Positions 26,611 through 44,679 of a stretch of DNA of 64,000 nucleotides are shown here, in pieces. Source of the stretch: Bdellovibrionota bacterium (GTDB lineage: Bacteria; Bdellovibrionota_C; UBA2361; CAKMMH01); contig JBMNLI010000010.1 of NCBI GenBank assembly GCA_050952645.1, positions 192,001-256,000 on the forward strand, written 5' to 3'. Position 1 is the first letter of the stretch, and each line of letters begins with the position of its first letter. The notes under the pieces are model-generated. The model ran no database searches and was not told the DNA's origin. It saw only the letters and a program-made list of their open reading frames with translations. The position numbers were made by a program, and so were the translations under genes.

Positions 26611-28479
26611 TTAATACCATTTTTTAACATCACATTCAATATCTTCTTTTATATCTTCTTTTATATCTTCTTTTATATCTTCTTTTACATCTTCTTTAAT
26701 ATCACTTTTATCTATAATTAAATGAAGTTCTTTTAATTGCGTCTTAGTTGGCTCTGAAGGAGCACCCATCATTAAGTCTTCAGCAGTTTGAGAAAGTGGA
26801 AACATTATTACATCTCGCACAGTTTCAACATTAGCAAGTAGCATTATAACTCTATCTATCCCAAAAGCCATTCCACCGTGAGGAGGAGCTCCATATCTAA
26901 AGGCTTTACACAAAGAAGAAAAACGTTGCTCTACTACTTCTTTATCGTATCCTACAACCTTAAAAGCCTTACAAAGCGACTCAAAATTATGGTTTCTTAT
27001 AGCACCACTTGCAAGCTCATTTCCATTTAAAACCAAGTCGAATTGATACGCTAAAATATCGTAAATATTTTCCCTTTCAAAATCCTTTTCTCCTCCTTTT
27101 GGCATAGAAAATGGATTATGGCAAAACTCTGGCTTTAAAGTCTCTTCATTTTCCTCATAAAGTGGAAAATCTACTACCCAGCAAAACTTGTATGTGTTTT
27201 TTTCTATTTTATCAAAATCTTTAGCTAGTTTTAATCTTAAATTTCCCATATATTTTAAAACTTGCTTTTTTGTTCCCATTGCAATAAACACTAGCGAAAC
27301 ATCGCTATTTTTAATCTCGCAAAGTTCCTTTATCTTACATGCTTCACGCTCGCTTACGACCTTGCTTAAACTTCCTTTCATTTCGCCACCTTGAAACGTA
27401 AGATATGAAAGTTTTTGACCTTTAGAAATTTTATCAAAATAAGCTAAAATCTCATCAAACATTTTTCTTGATGGACAGGTTTTTACATTAAACTCTAATG
27501 CTATAATTTCTAGATTATTTTTTACTCCGTCTGCAAAAATTTTAAACTCGCTATCTTCAAAAACGCTCGTTATATTTTTAAGTTTATTTTTAATTCTTAA
27601 ATCTGGTTTATCTGTGCCATAATCTCTTAAAGCATCTTTATAAGAAATCTTTGGAAACTCTGGTTTTGTAGTTTCATAATTAGAAAACTTAGAGAAAATC
27701 TCGTATGCTACTTTCTCACCTACTCTAAATATATCTTCCTGCTCACAAAATGCCATTTCTAAATCGAGCTGATAAAACTCCCCTGGCGACCTATCTGCCC
27801 GAGGGTCTTCATCTCTAAAGCAAGGTGCTATTTGAAAATAATTATCAAACCCAGAAACTACAATAAGCTCTTTAAAAATTTGTGGAGCTTGAGGTAGTGC
27901 GTAAAATTTCCCTGCGTGTAGTCTAGAGGGAACTAAGAAATCTCTTGCTCCTTCGGGAGATGAGCTAGTTAAAATAGGAGTGTGAAACTCTGTAAAACCT
28001 AAATCCCACATAATATCACGCATTTTTTTAGTAACGTAAGAACGCATTTTAATAATTTTTCTTACGCTCTCTTTCCTAAGTTCTAAAAATCTATACTCTA
28101 GTCTTATATTTTCTGGGGCGTTATCCTCCTTAGAAACTGTAAAAGGTAGCACATCACAAGCACTTAAAACCTTAAAACTTTCAACGCTTATTTCTATCTC
28201 ACCCGTTGCTCTTTCTTTATTAACGAGTTCACCCCTTGAAGCCACCACGCCTTTTACGTGAATAACCGCCTCTACTCTTACCTCGCAAATCTTTTCAATT
28301 AGTTCGTCGCTAAAAACTAATTGCGTAATGCCATAATCATCTCTTAAGTCTACGAAAACTAAATGGCCTAAATTTCTTAAACTATCTATCCAACCAGATA
28401 GTAAAACTTTCTCACCTATATTTTCTTTTCTTAATTCGCCGCAAGTGTGTGTTCTATATTTATTTTTAACGAAAGTCAT
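26611..28479 (-). CDS. aspS: Aspartate--tRNA ligase
   Basis: YRTHTCGEL, PEGARDFLVP, APCFRDED, APPHGGMAFGIDR; C-terminal EDIK repeats. Confidence 0.96.
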   Translation of the reverse strand: MTFVKNKYRTHTCGELRKENIGEKVLLSGWIDSLRNLGHLVFVDLRDDYGITQLVFSDELIEKICEVRVEAVIHVKGVVASRGELVNKERATGEIEISVESFKVLSACDVLPFTVSKEDNAPENIRLEYRFLELRKESVRKIIKMRSYVTKKMRDIMWDLGFTEFHTPILTSSSPEGARDFLVPSRLHAGKFYALPQAPQIFKELIVVSGFDNYFQIAPCFRDEDPRADRSPGEFYQLDLEMAFCEQEDIFRVGEKVAYEIFSKFSNYETTKPEFPKISYKDALRDYGTDKPDLRIKNKLKNITSVFEDSEFKIFADGVKNNLEIIALEFNVKTCPSRKMFDEILAYFDKISKGQKLSYLTFQGGEMKGSLSKVVSEREACKIKELCEIKNSDVSLVFIAMGTKKQVLKYMGNLRLKLAKDFDKIEKNTYKFCWVVDFPLYEENEETLKPEFCHNPFSMPKGGEKDFERENIYDILAYQFDLVLNGNELASGAIRNHNFESLCKAFKVVGYDKEVVEQRFSSLCKAFRYGAPPHGGMAFGIDRVIMLLANVETVRDVIMFPLSQTAEDLMMGAPSEPTKTQLKELHLIIDKSDIKEDVKEDIKEDIKEDIKEDIECDVKKWY

Positions 28480-34856: not shown

Positions 34857-35026
34857 ACTTTAAGTTCTTTATATCTTTTTAGTTCTTCACATCTTTAAAG
34901 TGAAAGAGAAAAAGAAAAAGAAAGAGAAAAAGAAAGAGAAAAAGAAAAGAAAAAGAAGAAAAAAATAGAAAGCAAGAAAAAGAAGCGTTCTCTTTTTTTT
35001 TCTTACAACTTTTCTTATAACTTTTC

Positions 35027-35683
35027 TTACAGCCCTTGCACTATATACCAAAGGCCAAAAAATCCGATTATAGTTTTAAATATAAACAAGTCTGCGAATA
35101 TTTGCCATCTATTTAGAATCTTAGCTAAAAGGCATAGAGAAATATCGCAAAGTAAAAAAACGAATAAAAAAGGGATAGACTTTTCAAAAGCTATTTTTAA
35201 CGAACTTAATATAAAGGTAAATATTTCATTATTCGTAATATTTGCATCTAATGAAAAATAAGTCGCATCTATTATCGCTCTAAAACTTTCTTCAAAGCCC
35301 CCATAGAAAATCCAAACGAACCAAACATACTTGCTAACTAATGTTGAGAAGTAAGATTGCGTCTCTCCTAATATGGGATTTAACACATACGAGGTATTAG
35401 CTCCCCTACCTGCATCGAAAAGCTCCGCCATAACGCTAGCTATATAAACTTTCATAAAGACTTGAACTGAAAATAAAAAACCGATTAGAATTTCATAATA
35501 ATAATTTTGACTTTCTAAAGTATGACCTGCACAAAACACAACAAAGAAAGACATTAGAAACGACAGCACGCACTTAGTTACAGTCGAGGATATACCGCCA
35601 GCTATAGGAACTAAGATAAGGAATGATATAAATCTTAAAAAATAACTAAAAAAACTTGTTAAATAAACATCAAAAGCAATCAT
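35027..35683 (-). CDS. fliR: Type III export gate subunit FliR/SctT (divergent)
   Basis: FLRFISF...VP, EILIGF, AELFDAGRG, many TMs; follows fliQ/sctS. Confidence 0.8.
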   Translation of the reverse strand: MIAFDVYLTSFFSYFLRFISFLILVPIAGGISSTVTKCVLSFLMSFFVVFCAGHTLESQNYYYEILIGFLFSVQVFMKVYIASVMAELFDAGRGANTSYVLNPILGETQSYFSTLVSKYVWFVWIFYGGFEESFRAIIDATYFSLDANITNNEIFTFILSSLKIAFEKSIPFLFVFLLCDISLCLLAKILNRWQIFADLFIFKTIIGFFGLWYIVQGL

Positions 35684-35946
35684 ATACTTAGCGATCCATA
35701 TTTTATTATTTCTACAAATGCACTATTAAAATAGTTGATAACCAAAGTATAAAAATAATTAAAACAAAAATAAAAAGTAGCAAAAACTACGATACACTTA
35801 ACTATATAAGATAAACTTTGCTCTTGGATTTGCGTTATAGTTTGCAAAAATGCTATAAATATCGAGCATAGCCCACTTAGAAGCAATGGAAGCCCAGAAA
35901 CGATTAAAATGATAAGAACTCCTTGAACTAAAAAATTTGTATTCAT
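35680..35946 (-). CDS. fliQ: Type III export gate subunit FliQ/SctS
   Basis: FLQTITQIQEQSLSYIVK signature, 88 aa. Confidence 0.9.
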   Translation of the reverse strand: MNTNFLVQGVLIILIVSGLPLLLSGLCSIFIAFLQTITQIQEQSLSYIVKCIVVFATFYFCFNYFYTLVINYFNSAFVEIIKYGSLSI

Positions 35947-36030
35947 AAATCACCTTACCAAGCAAAAAAAAGGCTCTTCACGTTTTAAGTGGGTTAAGGA
36001 CCTTAAAATTAGTATCACGCACCCCACGAA

Positions 36031-37923
36031 ATAGGGTAGAGCGAGGGCTATACCCTCTCCCTCCCGTCGCACCGTACGTACGGGTCTCGTATACGGCGCT
36101 CCATTAATATAATATCAAGTAATACTCAGGTAATACGTCAAAGGGTCGATTAAACCAATTCGTTCCTTTGTTTTACGCCCCAATATTTTAGGGCTTAATG
36201 CATAATTCACTACGTACCACGAACTGCGTCTATACCAGCCGAGTCTGCTGTTAGCAACCTTATAGATTTCTTCATTTCTAAAATTGCAACCAAGCATTCG
36301 GTTCAATTTCTTAAGATTTAGATAGATTCGTCTCGGCAATTTCCACTGTTTAAGTATTATAACCCTCACTTTGTGTCTAAGCCATTGACCATATTTATCT
36401 ATAAAAGTCTTAAGAGTTCCTATCTTATAATAGTTTATCCAACCTTTAATTAACCAGCTTAGCTGTTGAAATGTCGAACCTAACGTTCGTGCCATTGCCT
36501 TCCGTCTACAAAGAATTTCTCTAGTTTTATCATAGAGTTTTCGTTTGCGATCTTCAGCAGGTTTACATTTCCAAGTTTTATACCCACTCTTCCAGTAGGT
36601 AAAGCCTAAGAAAGTGCTTTCCGTCGGCCTAGAGATTTTACTCTTACTTGAATTAATTTTAAGTCGTAGCTTACGCTCCAACCAACTCGCAACGGACTTC
36701 ATTACTCTATTAGCAGCCTTTTCACTTCTAACAAATATATTACAGTCATCGGCATATCTAACAAACTTAAGTCCTCTTGCTTCCAGTTCCTTGTCGAGCT
36801 TATCAAGGTATATGTTAGATAATACTGGGGATAATGGACCTCCTTGCGGAACTCCTTTCTCACTTACAGTAAACAATCCATCTTCCATTATACCAGCTCT
36901 TAAGAACTGTCTTATCAATCGTAGTGTCTTCGCATCTTTGATGCGTTCCCTGATTATCGAAATTAATTTGTCGTGATTAACAGTATCAAAATATTTCTCT
37001 ATGTCTAGGTCTATAACCCAATCATAGCCTCTTTTCAAGTACTCAAGAGTTCTATATACTGCTAGATGGCAATTCCTTCTAGGTCTAAAGCCATAGCTAC
37101 TATTACTAAAATACTTTTCGTATCCGCGTGCTAGTATTTGCGCTACCGCTTGTTGAATTACCCTATCTACTACTGTAGGTATTCCTAAAGGTCTCATCTT
37201 ACCATTAGCTTTAGGTATATACACTCTCTTAACTGGACTCGGCTTATAATTCCCTTCACGTATCTGAGATTTTATCTCTTCTCTGTGAACGGCAAAATAG
37301 TCTTCAAGCTCATCTACTGGCATATCATCTACACCAGATGCACCTTTATTTCGCTTAACAGCCTTTATAGCCTCATCTATATTTTTGTCTGATATAATTA
37401 GTTCAATCAATTCCACCTGTTGCTCCTCCCTCTGTTTGTAAAGCTACTAGAAAACACCCCCTCTATCTTCTGCCCCCACAGGTTACGTTCCTGTTTGTTA
37501 GGCATATCTTCAATTTCGGACTCTTCTAGCCTTGCTTACAGTGATTCACAATATATTAACGTTCAACCCTTCCTTGAGTGGTGTCTCAAGTACTATGGTA
37601 TCAACTGACTTCCAGATATAAGCTTTATATCGCACGTGCATAGCACGCTATCTGGACCTCCGGGGTAAGGCATAGTTCTTTCACCAGACAACCTCCAGAT
37701 TTACTCGTTTGGTTTTACGTTTGTCTTTAGGGCTTCGGTTTGTAGCGCAACCTCACCCACCATTTAGCCTTGTATCTGGTTTCTGTTCGTAGGCTCCTTG
37801 GTTTTGATCCGCCACTTCCTTCACTCTAACATTACTGCTTCGAGCTTGTGGCATCACTACACTTGGTGACAACTACCCGTGACGGGACTTTCACCCGCTA
37901 GAACTATGTCGTGCCCGGCACAC
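36031..37923 (-). mobile_element. Complete group IIC intron (1893 nt)
   Basis: 5' GTGTGCCGGGCAC; domain V GAGCGCCGTATACGAGACCCGTACGTACGGTGCG with CGC triad; 3' end CCCTAT; both boundaries fixed by empty-site copies reading GGGC|TTCGT. Confidence 0.93.
36115..37416 (-). CDS. ltrA: Group II intron reverse transcriptase/maturase (class C, no endonuclease domain)
   Basis: NKGASGVD, RPLGIPTVVDR, SYGFRP, GVPQGGPLSP, RYADD, maturase GWINYY; no HNH. Confidence 0.96.
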   Translation of the reverse strand: MELIELIISDKNIDEAIKAVKRNKGASGVDDMPVDELEDYFAVHREEIKSQIREGNYKPSPVKRVYIPKANGKMRPLGIPTVVDRVIQQAVAQILARGYEKYFSNSSYGFRPRRNCHLAVYRTLEYLKRGYDWVIDLDIEKYFDTVNHDKLISIIRERIKDAKTLRLIRQFLRAGIMEDGLFTVSEKGVPQGGPLSPVLSNIYLDKLDKELEARGLKFVRYADDCNIFVRSEKAANRVMKSVASWLERKLRLKINSSKSKISRPTESTFLGFTYWKSGYKTWKCKPAEDRKRKLYDKTREILCRRKAMARTLGSTFQQLSWLIKGWINYYKIGTLKTFIDKYGQWLRHKVRVIILKQWKLPRRIYLNLKKLNRMLGCNFRNEEIYKVANSRLGWYRRSSWYVVNYALSPKILGRKTKERIGLIDPLTYYLSIT

Positions 37924-38094
37924 GCCCAAAAGAAAATTGACTTTAAAGAAATTTGCATAAAATAAATTACTTTAAATATAGTTGTAATTTTTCTTTAAAC
38001 TATAGCTAGTTTTCTACAAAAGCCAATTTTCTTTTAAGCTAACCCAAAAAACAATTTTTCTAACCCACCTAAAACGTGAAGAACCAAAAAAAAA

Positions 38095-38970
38095 TCAATT
38101 TAGAAACGATAAAATTAAAGATTTCCCTAAAAGTAGCCACCCATCTATAAGCACAAAGATTAATATTTTTAATGGGAGAGATACTAAAGACGGCGTAAGC
38201 ATATACATTCCAAGCCCTACTAAAATATTTGCAACGATTATATCGATTATTAAAAATGGAATCAGTAAACTAACACTCATAGCAAAGGCCTCTTTTAGTT
38301 CTGAAAATAAAAAAGCTAAAAGCACTATAGGGAAACTTTCTTCATCTCTAGTTTTTAATTCTTCTTTTTGAACTTTTAAAGCTTCTAAATTTTTATTTAA
38401 AACTTCTTTGCCATCTTTAAAAACTATTTCTTTATTATTTTCTTTATTTTTTTCTTTGCTAATTTCTTTATTACTTACTTTATTACTTACTTTATAACTC
38501 TCATTATTGCTTTCATTATTGCTTTCTTTATTGCTCTCACTATTGCTTTCTTTACTTTTCTCAATATCGTGTTTTTTAACTATATCTTTTTTTATATCTA
38601 CTAAAAGAGCTAACTCTTTTTTCCCTGAATGCTTAAGCATAAAATTTTTCCAAGGAACTGAAATTTTTTTGAAAATATCCATAGCATCATTAAATTTAAA
38701 TTCTTGAAGCTTTACATTTTGAAAGCTTTTAGCGATATCATGCGATTCTTCATACACGGGGTACATTATAAATAGGCTCAAAGAAAATGATAAAACTAAA
38801 ATTAAGATATTCCCTGGGAATTGTTGCGTGCCGAACCCATTTCTTAAGAGCGTAAGCACTATGCTTATTTTTAAATACGATGTGCAAACTCCTAATATAA
38901 TAGGGATAAGCGATACTAATAAAGTTATAAAAATAAACCACATTGGATTTATAGCCATGCTCGTGTTCAT
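38095..38970 (-). CDS. fliP: Type III export gate subunit FliP/SctR with low-complexity insertion
   Basis: TSYLKISIVLTLLRNGFGTQQFP, SELKEAF, PFLIIDIIVANIL, SLPLKILIFVLIDGW; no N-terminal signal peptide. Confidence 0.93.
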   Translation of the reverse strand: MNTSMAINPMWFIFITLLVSLIPIILGVCTSYLKISIVLTLLRNGFGTQQFPGNILILVLSFSLSLFIMYPVYEESHDIAKSFQNVKLQEFKFNDAMDIFKKISVPWKNFMLKHSGKKELALLVDIKKDIVKKHDIEKSKESNSESNKESNNESNNESYKVSNKVSNKEISKEKNKENNKEIVFKDGKEVLNKNLEALKVQKEELKTRDEESFPIVLLAFLFSELKEAFAMSVSLLIPFLIIDIIVANILVGLGMYMLTPSLVSLPLKILIFVLIDGWLLLGKSLILSFLN

Positions 38971-39917
38971 ACAGATTGCCTTAAAATAATATTTCTAACG
39001 TTTAAGCCTTTGCTTTTTAAAGTCTCTAAAATTTTTGTTCTCTCTTTATGAAAATTTAAATAATCCTTGTAAGAATTTATAGAAATATTTATATCTACTA
39101 TATTTTGATTTTCTAAAAAATTTAAATTAAATAAGTTTCCAGCCTCTGAGGTATACTCTAAGGAAATACTCGAGCCATTTTCAAACTTTTGAACGCTAAG
39201 CTCATCAATCCTTTCTTGAAACTTTTCAAAGCTTAAGAAACTCTCCGATGCGTTCTTGTTTTTGCTTTGCTCTCCGTTAAACGATGTATCAAAAAAACTA
39301 TTATCATTATTTTGAACTATTACGCTTCTATTGTCGCACTCCTGTAAACTATCGCTTGTGCATTCTAAATTTGTGCTACGCTCGACATCACTTTCTATTT
39401 CTTCTATAAAAGATTTTTCTTTTTCTCCATCTAATTCTTTGACTTTAAGGCTTGCCTTATCTTTTTCAAATAAGTCCTTAAATCTTTTTGACACGATAAA
39501 AGTTTCAATATTTTCCGTCGTCTCTATATTTTCTTTCTTTATTTTTTGAGTTAATTTTATATCTTCTATTTTTTTATAAATAAACTCTAGCATCTTATTA
39601 GACTTATTTAATTTCTTGGTTAAGTCTTGAGTTTTAAGCTCTAGCTCGCTTGCGATCGCCTTGTTCTTTTCTAAATCTTTCGACTTTTCTACGATTCTCT
39701 TTTGCAAAAACTTTAAATTATTTTTTGCGTCTTTATCATCTTTAGTTTTTCTTTCTATAAAAGAGCTTCTTACTCTCTCAAAATCGCTATTTTTTTCCTG
39801 AATTCTCGTTTTTACTTCTTGAAACTTTACGTTTTCTTCTCTTAAGCGATTTTCAAGCTCAAGCTTTGATATAGTGTCGTATTCATATTTTTTTATTAGA
39901 AAATCTTTTTCTTGCAT
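38967..39917 (-). CDS. Possible SctO/FliJ-like coiled coil fused to an SctP/FliK-like C-terminal domain
   Basis: ~140-aa coiled coil, acidic linker, C-terminal beta-rich domain ending ILETLKSKGLNVRNIIL; stop overlaps the fliP/sctR start. Confidence 0.55.
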   Translation of the reverse strand: MQEKDFLIKKYEYDTISKLELENRLREENVKFQEVKTRIQEKNSDFERVRSSFIERKTKDDKDAKNNLKFLQKRIVEKSKDLEKNKAIASELELKTQDLTKKLNKSNKMLEFIYKKIEDIKLTQKIKKENIETTENIETFIVSKRFKDLFEKDKASLKVKELDGEKEKSFIEEIESDVERSTNLECTSDSLQECDNRSVIVQNNDNSFFDTSFNGEQSKNKNASESFLSFEKFQERIDELSVQKFENGSSISLEYTSEAGNLFNLNFLENQNIVDINISINSYKDYLNFHKERTKILETLKSKGLNVRNIILRQSV

Positions 39918-39942
39918 TTTTTAAAACTACGGCTTAAAAAAA

Positions 39943-40236
39943 TTAAATACCATTTTGAAGCTTTCTAACGCTTCCTACGCCTGCTTCTGCTACCCGAGAA
40001 ACGAGTTCGACTTTCATCGCTAAATTATTTACATTTATCTGACAACGCATTAAATCTTTTAACTCGTTCATAGAATTTTTTTGCGTCTCCGATACCTTAT
40101 CGGTTTTTATCGAATCGGTTTTTATCGATGTGAAATGTGATAGATAATCTTTAAAACTCTTATTCGATACAGCATTATTTAAAAGATTATCGTCTAGACC
40201 CATGTTTTTTAATGAATTTAAAAATGAAACTTTCAC
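39943..40236 (-). CDS. Small type III rod/needle-like protein (SctI/SctF/FliE-like)
   Basis: 97 aa; SFKDYL then C-terminal helical hairpin DLMRCQINVNNLAMKVELVSRVAEAGVGSVRKLQN. Confidence 0.6.
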   Translation of the reverse strand: MKVSFLNSLKNMGLDDNLLNNAVSNKSFKDYLSHFTSIKTDSIKTDKVSETQKNSMNELKDLMRCQINVNNLAMKVELVSRVAEAGVGSVRKLQNGI

Positions 40237-42607: not shown

Positions 42608-43606
42608 ATGGATTTTATAAACGCAAATTTTAATCTTCAAATTTTTGATTATATGATTTCTCACTACCAAGGAAAGTATGCTTTTACGACTATCCTTTCA
42701 ACATTAAATTCTACTCATTATAAATCTGGCGAGCAAATATTCGTTAAAAACGATCTTTTAAAATTTGAAAAGATGCGTAGCGAAGTTGTTCAAGAGCAAA
42801 AGGTATTTTTCGATAGAGGCAAATGTAGCAATGATGATGTAGAATACAGAACTTTAAAAAGTTCATTAGAGCAAATGTCCATGGACTTATTAAATCACGC
42901 TGAAAAAGTAGACCCGATAATCGATGCGACCGACTACTCTTCTGATCCTGAAAAAGTTAATTTTCTAGTAGCATCTTATGGTAGAGTTTGCTACCAGAGA
43001 ATGCACCAATTTAGCTTTAATTTAGACTCTGCTATTACTCTAAATCTTAGGCAAGAAGCTGCAGGATTGCAAAACTTAAGAAGCGTAGCTATTCAAAATA
43101 TGTCGAACTTTGATGGCTTCGTTCAAAATACTATGCTCTCAAAACAATTGATACCTAAAGAAACCTACATCGCATTTTGGGAAGATTGCGTTTCAATTGG
43201 TGCTACACTAAAAGCGGCTTGTCATGATATCGATATGTTTATTAAGCTAAGTGAAAAAGATGATTTTGAATACACAGATTATCCGTATATTCATCAAGAT
43301 GAAATGGCTAGCTGGCAACAATTAAACGTTATCCCACAAAGTATAGGCTACTGGAAAGCTTGCGACTTTACTCCATCGAAAGCCGCACCTTGGATAAGCG
43401 TAAATATAACGGATCCTTTTTTATGTCTTACTAGTTTAAAATATAAACTAACCGTAGATGATACATCTTTATGTATGCAACAAAATATTCCTTTAGTTTT
43501 AGCAAGACGTTGGATAGCCCTTGGCGTTCCGTTAGTAGAGGGAATAGAAAGAATGAAAAAAGGAGAAATGCCACCTCTAGTAAAGGAAGGTGAAAGAATG
43601 CTTTAA
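42608..43606 (+). CDS. Hypothetical protein with Trp-spaced C-terminal repeats
   Basis: 332-aa ORF with AGGA RBS; W..xF.P..A..W-like periodicity near the C-terminus. Confidence 0.7.
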   Translation: MDFINANFNLQIFDYMISHYQGKYAFTTILSTLNSTHYKSGEQIFVKNDLLKFEKMRSEVVQEQKVFFDRGKCSNDDVEYRTLKSSLEQMSMDLLNHAEKVDPIIDATDYSSDPEKVNFLVASYGRVCYQRMHQFSFNLDSAITLNLRQEAAGLQNLRSVAIQNMSNFDGFVQNTMLSKQLIPKETYIAFWEDCVSIGATLKAACHDIDMFIKLSEKDDFEYTDYPYIHQDEMASWQQLNVIPQSIGYWKACDFTPSKAAPWISVNITDPFLCLTSLKYKLTVDDTSLCMQQNIPLVLARRWIALGVPLVEGIERMKKGEMPPLVKEGERML

Positions 43607-43668: not shown

Positions 43669-44679
43669 TTATTTAGCGTATCCTTGATTTCTCGCTCTAT
43701 AAAAATCGGTTAGCTTTTGAAGCACACCTGCACAAACGCTTACGATTTTTCCCCACCCAGTAGGAATAAATGAGAAAACTTTTTTTGCTATACCTAACCC
43801 AGTAGATATTTTCTTTGCACATTTATCAAACCAGCCTTTAATTCCCGAGCGAAGCTTATAAGAGCGGCTAGCAAACATTCCAGTGTTGCCATCATATGCG
43901 ACTGTAAATCTTTGTTTCCCATATTTTACAGTAAAATCGTTTTGAGGGTCTTGCCTAAAGTTTGCTATCTTAGTTTCAAAATCAAGAATTTTATTATTTA
44001 ACTCTTCTTGTTTTACAGGATCTTCGATTATATTTTCTTCCATGTTGCTAGGCAAATCTTCGACTGGCCAACCAAACTCTAAGCTCATACTAGCAAGCTT
44101 TTGATTTTGCTCAGGCGTTATATTAGTATTTCTAAGCCTTACAAAATGCCCATCTTTGCTCCAAGCAAGAAAACCATCTTCGCTATTTCCTAAGCCTCCA
44201 TTCGATAAAATTGCTTGCTCAACTACCGCTCGCCACTCATTTACAGAAAAATTATTTGCATTAGCTTTAAATAGCTCTCCTGCAAGCTCGTTTACTTTAG
44301 GGTCGATAATAATTGCACCTAAAATATAATTCCTAGGATTTACGAGCGTTTCACCACTTATTAACGGTGCATTTCTAGCCGATGTATAAGGGTAGCCACT
44401 AAAAGCCGGAATTACATGGTTTAAGTTTGCTTGAGTAGATGATAAATATCTAAGCAAATTTTCATCAATGTTTTTCAATGCAACGTTTTGAGTTGCTATG
44501 TTTTGAGTTGCTATATTGTGAGAGGCGATATTTTGAGTTAACAAATTTTGGCTAGGCATAACATTTTGCATATTTGTTATATTATTACAATTAGCACTAG
44601 TTCCTGCACCCATATTTTGTGCTATTAAAAAATTGTAATAATCTGCTAATTGCCGATTATAAATATTATTAACTTCCAT
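43669..44679 (-). CDS. Hypothetical protein; candidate type III substrate
   Basis: AGGAG RBS; N/Q-rich N-terminus without signal peptide, QNIAT repeats; amphipathic C-terminal helices. Confidence 0.7.
   Translation of the reverse strand: MEVNNIYNRQLADYYNFLIAQNMGAGTSANCNNITNMQNVMPSQNLLTQNIASHNIATQNIATQNVALKNIDENLLRYLSSTQANLNHVIPAFSGYPYTSARNAPLISGETLVNPRNYILGAIIIDPKVNELAGELFKANANNFSVNEWRAVVEQAILSNGGLGNSEDGFLAWSKDGHFVRLRNTNITPEQNQKLASMSLEFGWPVEDLPSNMEENIIEDPVKQEELNNKILDFETKIANFRQDPQNDFTVKYGKQRFTVAYDGNTGMFASRSYKLRSGIKGWFDKCAKKISTGLGIAKKVFSFIPTGWGKIVSVCAGVLQKLTDFYRARNQGYAK

Follow-up and report, generated by a model that had tools for sequence, protein, structure and literature searches.

We analyzed a 64,000-nucleotide stretch of the genome of a Bdellovibrionota bacterium (GTDB lineage Bdellovibrionota_C; UBA2361; CAKMMH01; assembly GCA_050952645.1, contig JBMNLI010000010.1, positions 192,001 to 256,000), hereafter the window, which carries an operon of five type III secretion genes. 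The best explanation for this operon, to which we give somewhat more than an even chance, is that it belongs to a separate nonflagellar type III secretion system (T3SS) in which a likely stalk is fused to a T3S4 switch domain within one protein of 316 amino acids (aa), and in which SctU is split in two genes. The genes of the operon and the parts of the 316-aa protein are as follows.

39943..40236, minus strand: SctI-like inner-rod protein, 97 aa (weak profile matches)
38967..39917, minus strand: 316-aa two-domain protein (AlphaFold2 model, family lengths, locus position)
39444..39914, minus strand: two-helix hairpin forming the N-terminal half of the 316-aa protein, residues 2 to 158 (AlphaFold2, structure search)
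39237..39440, minus strand: linker, residues 160 to 227 (predicted local distance difference test [pLDDT] score below 50, probably disordered)
38976..39230, minus strand: T3S4 substrate-switch-type domain, residues 230 to 314 (structure searches, profiles)
38095..38970, minus strand: SctR, 291 aa (NF009438 over cutoff; Pfam FliP, E 6.9e-54)
35680..35946, minus strand: SctS, 88 aa (PF01313, E 1.3e-15, over cutoff)
35027..35683, minus strand: SctT, 218 aa (PF01311, E 1.2e-14, over cutoff)

A two-domain protein encoded upstream of sctR

We show that the 316-aa protein is built of two domains. Its AlphaFold2 model (pLDDT 76.8) consists of two helices (residues 2 to 58 and 64 to 158), a low-confidence stretch (160 to 227), and an alpha/beta domain (230 to 314), which confirms the two-domain build foreseen in an earlier prediction made from the DNA letters alone (the original prediction). 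In a large library, 130 of 138 family representatives are 256 to 442 aa long, and the linkers of 28 homologues span 36 to 130 residues, with a median of 82. A frameshift was rejected as the cause of the fusion, since the fusion recurs across families. When the full-length profile was compared with PDB sequences, only generic coiled coils were recovered.

The C-terminal half is very probably a T3S4 domain, an identification that we rate this highly because several modest lines of structural and profile evidence agree. With the predicted domain alone as the query, FliK-C (2rrl) ranked first among 48,161 chains (Z 6.6, 80 of 90 residues aligned, root mean square deviation [rmsd] 3.7) and PscP (5cuk) ranked third (Z 5.2). 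Foldseek placed PscP first when queried with the whole model (E 0.0033, rmsd 2.3) and third when queried with the C-terminal domain alone. In profile comparisons, 2rrl (FliK-C) was the best natural match in the PDB (E 0.004), Pfam Flg_hook matched 12 of 28 C-terminal domains (best E 7.8e-5), and the domain profile aligned with the C terminus of the FliK encoded by the same genome (E 1.4e-4). The domain is, moreover, a small alpha/beta fold that lies at the C terminus after a flexible region, as a T3S4 domain does. The FliK/SctP-type C-terminal domain of the original prediction is supported by these matches.

The N-terminal half is, on structural modeling and gene position, reasonably likely to be an SctO-type stalk. 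The hairpin superimposes on CT670 (3k29; Z 12.2, rmsd 2.2 Å, 156 of 162 residues aligned) and on FliJ (3ajw; Z 11.4, rmsd 2.1 Å, 134 of 134 aligned), and it has the shape of a stalk, a two-helix hairpin of about 140 to 160 residues with unequal arms, although that shape is not specific. Gene content points the same way. In all six flagellar loci FliJ follows FliI, while no stalk-like gene follows the nonflagellar sctL-sctN pair in any of 13 loci of the order (one further sctN locus, with a stop, was excluded from the 13); in four of four sister-order genomes, the slot of the fusion gene is held by a gene of 149 to 206 aa without a T3S4 domain. The SctO/FliJ family is very divergent in sequence. 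Our confidence in the stalk goes no higher because sequence similarity to known stalks was not found: the SctO-type N-terminal half that had been predicted is favored by its fold, by its position, and by the absence of any stalk gene behind sctN, but not by sequence. The accompanying idea of a short ruler is doubtful, because a domain tied to a stalk would act as a cytoplasmic switch and not as a secreted ruler.

The fusion appears to be confined to the order of the host, whether by gain here or by loss elsewhere. A T3S4 domain profile found matches in 42 of 73 genomes of the order versus 4 of 23 others, and we draw this conclusion because those 4 outside matches are frames of 487 to 663 aa and thus, judged by length, probably FliK. 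A search with the same profile for longer proteins recovered only family members of 277 to 355 aa.

Within the order, a profile search found the block sctI, fusion gene, (fliO), sctRST in 28 of 83 genomes. A phylum-level search recovered genomes of a single class only. Every one of the 28 loci has a member of the 316-aa family upstream of sctR, preceded in 27 by an SctI-like gene; in 8 of the 28, a small gene stands between the fusion gene and sctR, and 6 of these exceed the Pfam FliO cutoff. The 97-aa protein of the window is weakly SctI-like by its profile matches (TIGR02497, E 0.007; MxiI as the best PDB profile match, E 0.084), and PF17001 matched 10 of 12 of its homologues (best E 1.2e-5), none of them over the cutoff.

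SctU is split in two around a histidine kinase

We also show that sctU is split. In most relatives the operon runs on beyond sctT with sctU_N (about 260 aa), a large gene, and sctU_C (about 90 aa). Among 32 loci examined, 29 have a complete sctU_N, which in every case stops at the strand that, in FlhB, comes before NPTH, and all 25 loci of sufficient length encode U_N, a protein of 852 to 1,205 aa, and then U_C. In a second, partly overlapping set, the best 30 loci, every SctU (30/30) ends 0 to 16 residues past the pre-NPTH strand and has no NPxH, which a full-length control retains. A one-chain SctU with an NPTH self-cleavage site was not found in these loci. A frameshift was rejected as the cause of the split, which, like the fusion, recurs across families. 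All 12 of the interposed large genes that were tested encode GAF/PAS histidine kinases, 4 with a weak receiver match; in the genome of the window the kinase between the sctU halves has 579 aa (L021:8470-10206), and only its HATPase domain was recognized.

The same layout is present in four sister-order genomes, and therefore the split is older than the stalk-T3S4 fusion. An FlhB/SctU that ends before NPTH is also encoded in two Planctomycetia metagenome-assembled genomes (MAGs; L097:9700-10437 and L119:5351-6157), and a truncated FlhB/SctU occurs in three Myxococcota-related loci (L355 to L357, relatives of a Myxococcaceae MAG), so this system is not alone in having a main chain that has lost the C-terminal domain. 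Cleavage at NPTH is described as required for substrate switching (PMC7064499), and precleaved SpaS is described as fully functional (PMC4620466).

We modeled the T3S4 domain and the two SctU pieces as a complex, together with three control complexes. The complex scored 0.46 (runs of 0.46, 0.11, and 0.63) and the best control 0.01; the runs share at least 0% of their contacts, and the pLDDT of the partners was at least 72. The score mark was reached by 116 of 157 solved pairs versus 2 of 215 mismatched pairs, with passes at 0.60 or under comprising only 18 of the 157 solved pairs and both mismatched passes. The modeling thus lends weak support to a contact between the T3S4 domain and the SctU pieces.

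The operon belongs to one of three type III systems in the genome

The type III genes of the window are not flagellar. Quick IQ-TREE trees were built from homologues of SctR and SctV (trees of 52 and 60 rows); the rows are MAGs only, without Myxococcus xanthus or Chlamydia, and contain long branches. The FliP clade (Shimodaira-Hasegawa-like approximate likelihood ratio test [SH-aLRT] support of 99) contains the FliP of this genome and not the SctR of the window, and the FlhA clade (99) excludes the clade of the short SctV that is the likely partner of this SctR (100); of the copies in this genome, each of the two flagellar clades contains the flagellar one only. The short-SctV, Tad-linked, Myxococcota, and canonical injectisome groups form separate clades whose joins are unresolved or involve long branches. 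SctR of the window begins at its first membrane segment, whereas the FliP of the genome is about 60 residues longer at the N terminus; a FliP-type leader is absent from the window SctR, as predicted, and from most of 24 aligned orthologues. For SctS, TIGR01403 outscores TIGR01402, and for SctT, TIGR01401 outscores TIGR01400. The operon is flanked by rho and an O-antigen-ligase-like gene, with no flagellar gene beside it, again as predicted, and no rod or hook gene is labeled in the loci of the order.

The host genome is 1.95 Mb in size and 93.75% complete. Half or more of its sampled words were found in each of four sequencing runs from four studies, labeled anaerobic digester (two, of which one may be the source), bioreactor, and metagenome. 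It encodes three FHIPEP, three FliF/SctJ, and three FliP/SctR paralogues and two export ATPases; at least three FHIPEP paralogues are present in 53 of 60 genomes of the order.

The first of its type III systems is a full flagellum, for which the genome has a dedicated gene set (fliLMNOPQR, flgBC-fliEF-fliHIJ, flhBA, fliK, fliG, and flgDE). Its FliK has 544 aa, and there are six flagellin-domain matches in the genome. Two oddities of this set were noted at L023:10376-12858 and C12:31516 of the host genome, G000: fliG stands alone elsewhere and not between fliF and fliH, and the MotB-like gene upstream of fliL has only 191 aa. The original prediction would have been overturned by a complete flagellar gene set together with an SctR that grouped inside FliP. 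The genome holds such a set, and SctR does not group there; a flagellar remnant was rejected.

The second is a Tad-linked nonflagellar T3SS with its own sctJ, Q, R, S, T, U, and V.

L018:2546-13171 and L020:115-7530 (G000 C12 and C15); also L321 in genome G095: Tad-linked T3SS

Its genes are flp, cpaB, cpaF, tadB, tadC, sctV, and a kinase-like gene, and then a gene for an FHA protein, sctJ, a small coiled-coil gene, sctQ, R, S, and T, a truncated sctU, and a TPR gene. In G095, sctV through sctU of this system form one cluster. The arrangement resembles a joined Kil and T3SS* system.

The third system comprises the window operon (sctI-like gene, 316-aa gene, sctR, sctS, and sctT), a locus with the two sctU pieces around the kinase, and the following cluster; sctL-sctN is probably its fourth locus.

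L019:7569-13885 (G000 C17, 277.5 to 283.9 kb): genes for a sigma-28-like factor, SctJ, SctQ, a 110-aa protein, a 608-aa SctV, a TPR lipoprotein, and a 100-aa protein

This sctJ-sctQ-sctV cluster is conserved, and the short SctV is present across the order. The 608-aa SctV matches NF004571, which we take to be a chlamydial FlhA-like family, along its whole length; a search with its C-terminal region found close kin only. In 26 of 30 loci a needle-sized helical gene of 96 to 115 aa adjoins sctV, with a TPR lipoprotein gene on the other side. The 110-aa protein itself gave only atlas leads (0.86 and 0.83) and a faint match to the SctI family (E 0.065). By the nonflagellar T3SS core criteria of Abby and Rocha (2012), SctR, S, T, and U are present besides the flagellar copies, as are V, J, Q, and N, whose assignment we infer. 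The original prediction had called the system reduced and compact, which is not supported: counterparts of sctJ, Q, V, U, L, and N were found at other places in the genome, and the window cluster is a fragment of a scattered system. Two secretins, typed as GspD and PilQ, are encoded in the genome, and single-sequence queries of the genome for HrpA, HrpP, SctP, and SctO returned nothing convincing.

A group II intron separates sctR from sctS

All five genes of the predicted list were recovered on the minus strand, except that sctR and sctS are not adjacent: a gap of 2,148 bases between them is occupied by a group II intron inside a dispersed repeat.

37924..38094, minus strand: dispersed repeat (like a miniature inverted-repeat transposable element [MITE]), upstream part (dozens of copies across the genome)
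36031..37923, minus strand: group II intron, 1,893 bp (same orientation as the operon)
36115..37416, minus strand: intron-encoded reverse transcriptase (RT)/maturase, 433 aa, intact (TIGR04416, E 6.9e-123, over cutoff)
35947..36030, minus strand: same dispersed repeat, downstream part

The intron shares with bacterial group II introns a GUGUG start, an AU end, domains V and VI, and an intact RT/maturase gene, and Rfam matches lie at 37670-37841 (RF02001) and 36031-36101 (RF00029). It occurs at 10 loci in the genome at ≥99.6% identity (contigs C6, C7, C10, C12, C15, and C17); several copies have broken RT frames, and one is interrupted. At least seven other copies abut the same dispersed repeat, about 255 bp in all, and this location of the copies at or beside a genome-wide repeat distinguishes the intron among group II introns. 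The MITE-like repeat appears to be its target site. In a congener (G001) the sctR-sctS spacer is 24 bp, with no insertion. The insertion is recent, and the intron was rejected as part of the secretion system. The intron, inside the repeat, has landed between sctR and sctS in this genome alone and would be spliced from the mRNA. Promoter and terminator scans performed at chance level.

Other features of the window and of the genome were also noted. The periplasmic part of SctR has a low-complexity insert (38400-38560), and expanded low-complexity tracts are found in the tails of the aspartyl-tRNA synthetase AspRS (26611-26700) and of the TPR lipoprotein (L019:7924-8400); all three tracts are shorter or absent in relatives. 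A purine-rich simple repeat (34880-35020) follows rho and faces the end of sctT. Two proteins without a Pfam match are encoded 2 to 4 kb upstream of the operon (332 aa, 42608-43606, plus strand; 336 aa, 43669-44679, minus strand).

Proposed mechanism and alternative explanations

In the mechanism that we propose, the gate inside the SctJ ring would be made up of SctRST, the 608-aa SctV, and the N-terminal piece of SctU, and the central stalk within the SctN ATPase ring would be the hairpin of the 316-aa protein. A flexible tether of about 70 to 80 residues would link the stalk to the T3S4 domain and keep that domain beside the separate SctU C-terminal domain; the fusion would fix the O-P contact and keep the switch domain at the cytoplasmic face. 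Switching from early substrates (the SctI rod and the 110-aa needle-like protein) to later ones would be a cytoplasmic event that involves no secreted ruler and no self-cleavage, which the SctU C-terminal domain would not need. The GAF-PAS histidine kinase between the sctU halves may tie expression or switching to a signal. An interaction between YscO and YscP is reported to be needed for secretion (PMC9190107, PMC3565153), and according to a title cited in PMC3565153, length control depends on the secretion of YscP, but switching does not. The likeliest use of the system would be contact-dependent export toward prey or host cells, a role suggested by analogy to prey contact by the Myxococcus T3SS (PMC12075869, PMC10433427, PMC3459982); by arrangement, the Tad-linked second system appears to fit that analogy better than the system of the window.

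Several observations weigh against this explanation. The parts of the system are spread over four loci in this genome, and we infer the ties of sctV/J/Q and sctL/N to the window operon from elimination and phylogeny, not from synteny. The order has one nonflagellar ATPase for two nonflagellar systems; one export ATPase may be shared between systems, or one system may be without an ATPase. FliI/SctN paralogues number at most two in the host genome and 13 other genomes of the order and three in the sister orders (six genomes). For the putative stalk, the hairpin Z score of 12 is tied with those of Smc, PspA, and other unrelated coiled coils; a profile of the N-terminal half had no similarity to four known SctO/FliJ sequences (E 0.57) or to the stalk-sized genes of the sister orders (E 0.94), and Pfam YscO matched only 1 of 24 homologues (E 0.064). 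For the putative T3S4 domain, the Foldseek E values are above 0.001, with metallo-beta-lactamases beside or above PscP, and every T3S4 match is below curated cutoffs, with 0 of 24 full-length homologues exceeding them. The 110-aa protein has no Pfam or PDB needle match. Finally, single-sequence queries of the 93.75% complete genome found no dedicated SctC and no SctD, gatekeeper, tip, or translocon. A secretin could conceivably be borrowed from another system, and SctD, gatekeeper, tip, and translocon parts diverge fast.

In one alternative, the 316-aa protein would be a short SctP that is secreted as a ruler, has a helical N terminus, and plays no part as a stalk; the stalk would be another, unrecognized gene or a borrowed one. 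A T3S4 domain after a variable low-complexity linker is indeed the layout of SctP and FliK, the N-terminal half has no sequence link to SctO, the named atlas neighbors are Flg_hook/HpaP (0.87), SpaN (0.86), and FliK (0.86), which are leads only, and both YscO and YscP are described as exported in Yersinia (PMC3565153). We nonetheless consider a short SctP unlikely, given that the N-terminal half is a confidently modeled hairpin of 157 residues that matches CT670 and FliJ end to end, that 13 of 13 loci of the order have no stalk gene after sctN, and that the sister orders carry a stalk-sized gene without T3S4 in this slot. A second possibility, which we rate as distinctly improbable, accepts the fusion as real but sees in the system a needle-less inner-membrane translocator like the Myxococcus T3SS*, in which T3S4 and U_C would work together in docking or regulation, much as fliK2-flhX, and would do no switching. 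Such a pair is known in Pseudomonas (10.1101/2021.08.29.457346), FliO occurs in the relatives as it does in Myxococcota systems (PMC12403147), and GspD and PilQ are the only secretins found, with no tip or translocon matches. The needle-sized protein of 96 to 115 aa beside sctV in 26 of 30 loci, with the TPR lipoprotein gene opposite, speaks against a needle-less device, as does the presence of U_C and the truncated SctU in the same operon in 25 of 25 loci; it is the Tad-linked second system that comes closer to the Myxococcus arrangement.

Decay would account for other peculiarities of the locus: the long branches of one family (f1), the low-complexity inserts in SctR, the scattered operon, the flagellar-type part FliO, and the 2.1-kb insertion that is absent from the congener with its 24-bp spacer. 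It is nevertheless very unlikely that we are looking at what is left of a decaying injectisome or second flagellar export system, inactivated through the sctR-sctS insertion. All five genes are open, many families share the gene order and domain build, and the short SctV occurs throughout the order; the intron, in sense orientation, is intact, and no terminator-like site was called in the repeat on the operon strand by scans that performed at chance level. A wider proposal, tentative and in our judgment less probable than not, would make the system part of a deep, class-wide injectisome-like family, with SctU as two proteins under a sensor kinase and, in one order, a ruler of which only a switch domain, carried by the ATPase stalk, is left. 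A signal and the supply of free SctU C-terminal domain, not filament length, would then determine switching; the flagellar FliO would have been kept, and the family might bridge flagella, Myxococcus-type systems, and injectisomes.

Significance and comparison with known systems

Whether the ruler must be secreted, what role SctU self-cleavage has, and how stalk and ruler relate are disputed in type III switching. The key experiments have natural counterparts in this lineage: a likely stalk fused to T3S4 and, class-wide, an SctU in two pieces, with the sister orders that have no fusion as natural controls. The lineage adds a nonflagellar family with FliO whose genomes, some of only 1.9 Mb, also encode a flagellum and a Tad-linked system, and it bears on the origin of injectisomes from flagella and on the way in which these bacteria, presumed to be predators or symbionts, affect other cells. 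The literature searched gave no account of this system, of an SctO-SctP fusion, or of a split SctU, although supplements (e.g., the FliO Dataset S2) may list these genomes. FliO in nonflagellar systems has already been reported (PMC12403147), and the excerpted text of PMC10469934 discusses T3SS for Myxococcota only.

The system of the window works like a nonflagellar T3SS, with the core genes present and the one-chain NPTH feature absent. Like the T3SS* of M. xanthus (mxan_2434-2464) and a second "short" locus of that species, it has a nonflagellar gate with SctI, J, Q, L, and N; also shared are the lack of a dedicated secretin in the searches made, FliO in some members, and a host lineage with Tad/Kil genes (PMC3459982, PMC10433427, PMC12075869, PMC12403147). 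Unlike the M. xanthus systems, it shares its genome with a full flagellum and with the second T3SS, linked to Tad genes, its stalk and T3S4 domain would be one protein, its SctU is split around a kinase, and a needle-sized gene is present. In our trees SctR and SctV of this system are not joined with support to the Myxococcota rows, among which M. xanthus itself is not included; a search of the family Myxococcaceae yielded four genomes and no clear comparison with M. xanthus.

The Ysc-type sctNOPQRSTU operon (Aeromonas Asc; YscO and YscP of Yersinia) shares the O slot and a P-type domain followed by R, S, T, and U in one direction. There, O and P are separate genes, and SctQ lies between P and R, whereas here O and P appear fused, with no SctQ between. 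Ysc-type systems also have a single SctU with NPTH as well as SctC, SctD, a gatekeeper, a tip, and a translocon, none of which five was found here. The flagellar FliJ, FliK, FliOPQR, and FlhB have folds homologous to the parts of this system, and FliO occurs in 8 of 28 related loci, but the flagellum of the host has its own full set. The free U_C resembles the stand-alone FlhX (HP1575), which can partly replace the FlhB C terminus in Helicobacter (10.1101/2021.08.29.457346); FlhX is normally found beside an intact FlhB, while the partner here is an SctU without its C-terminal domain. The best secretion-protein structural matches for the two halves of the 316-aa protein, Chlamydia CT670 (CdsO, 3k29), Pseudomonas aeruginosa PscP (5cuk), and Salmonella FliK-C (2rrl), are separate proteins, with identities of 5 to 17% in the structural alignments.

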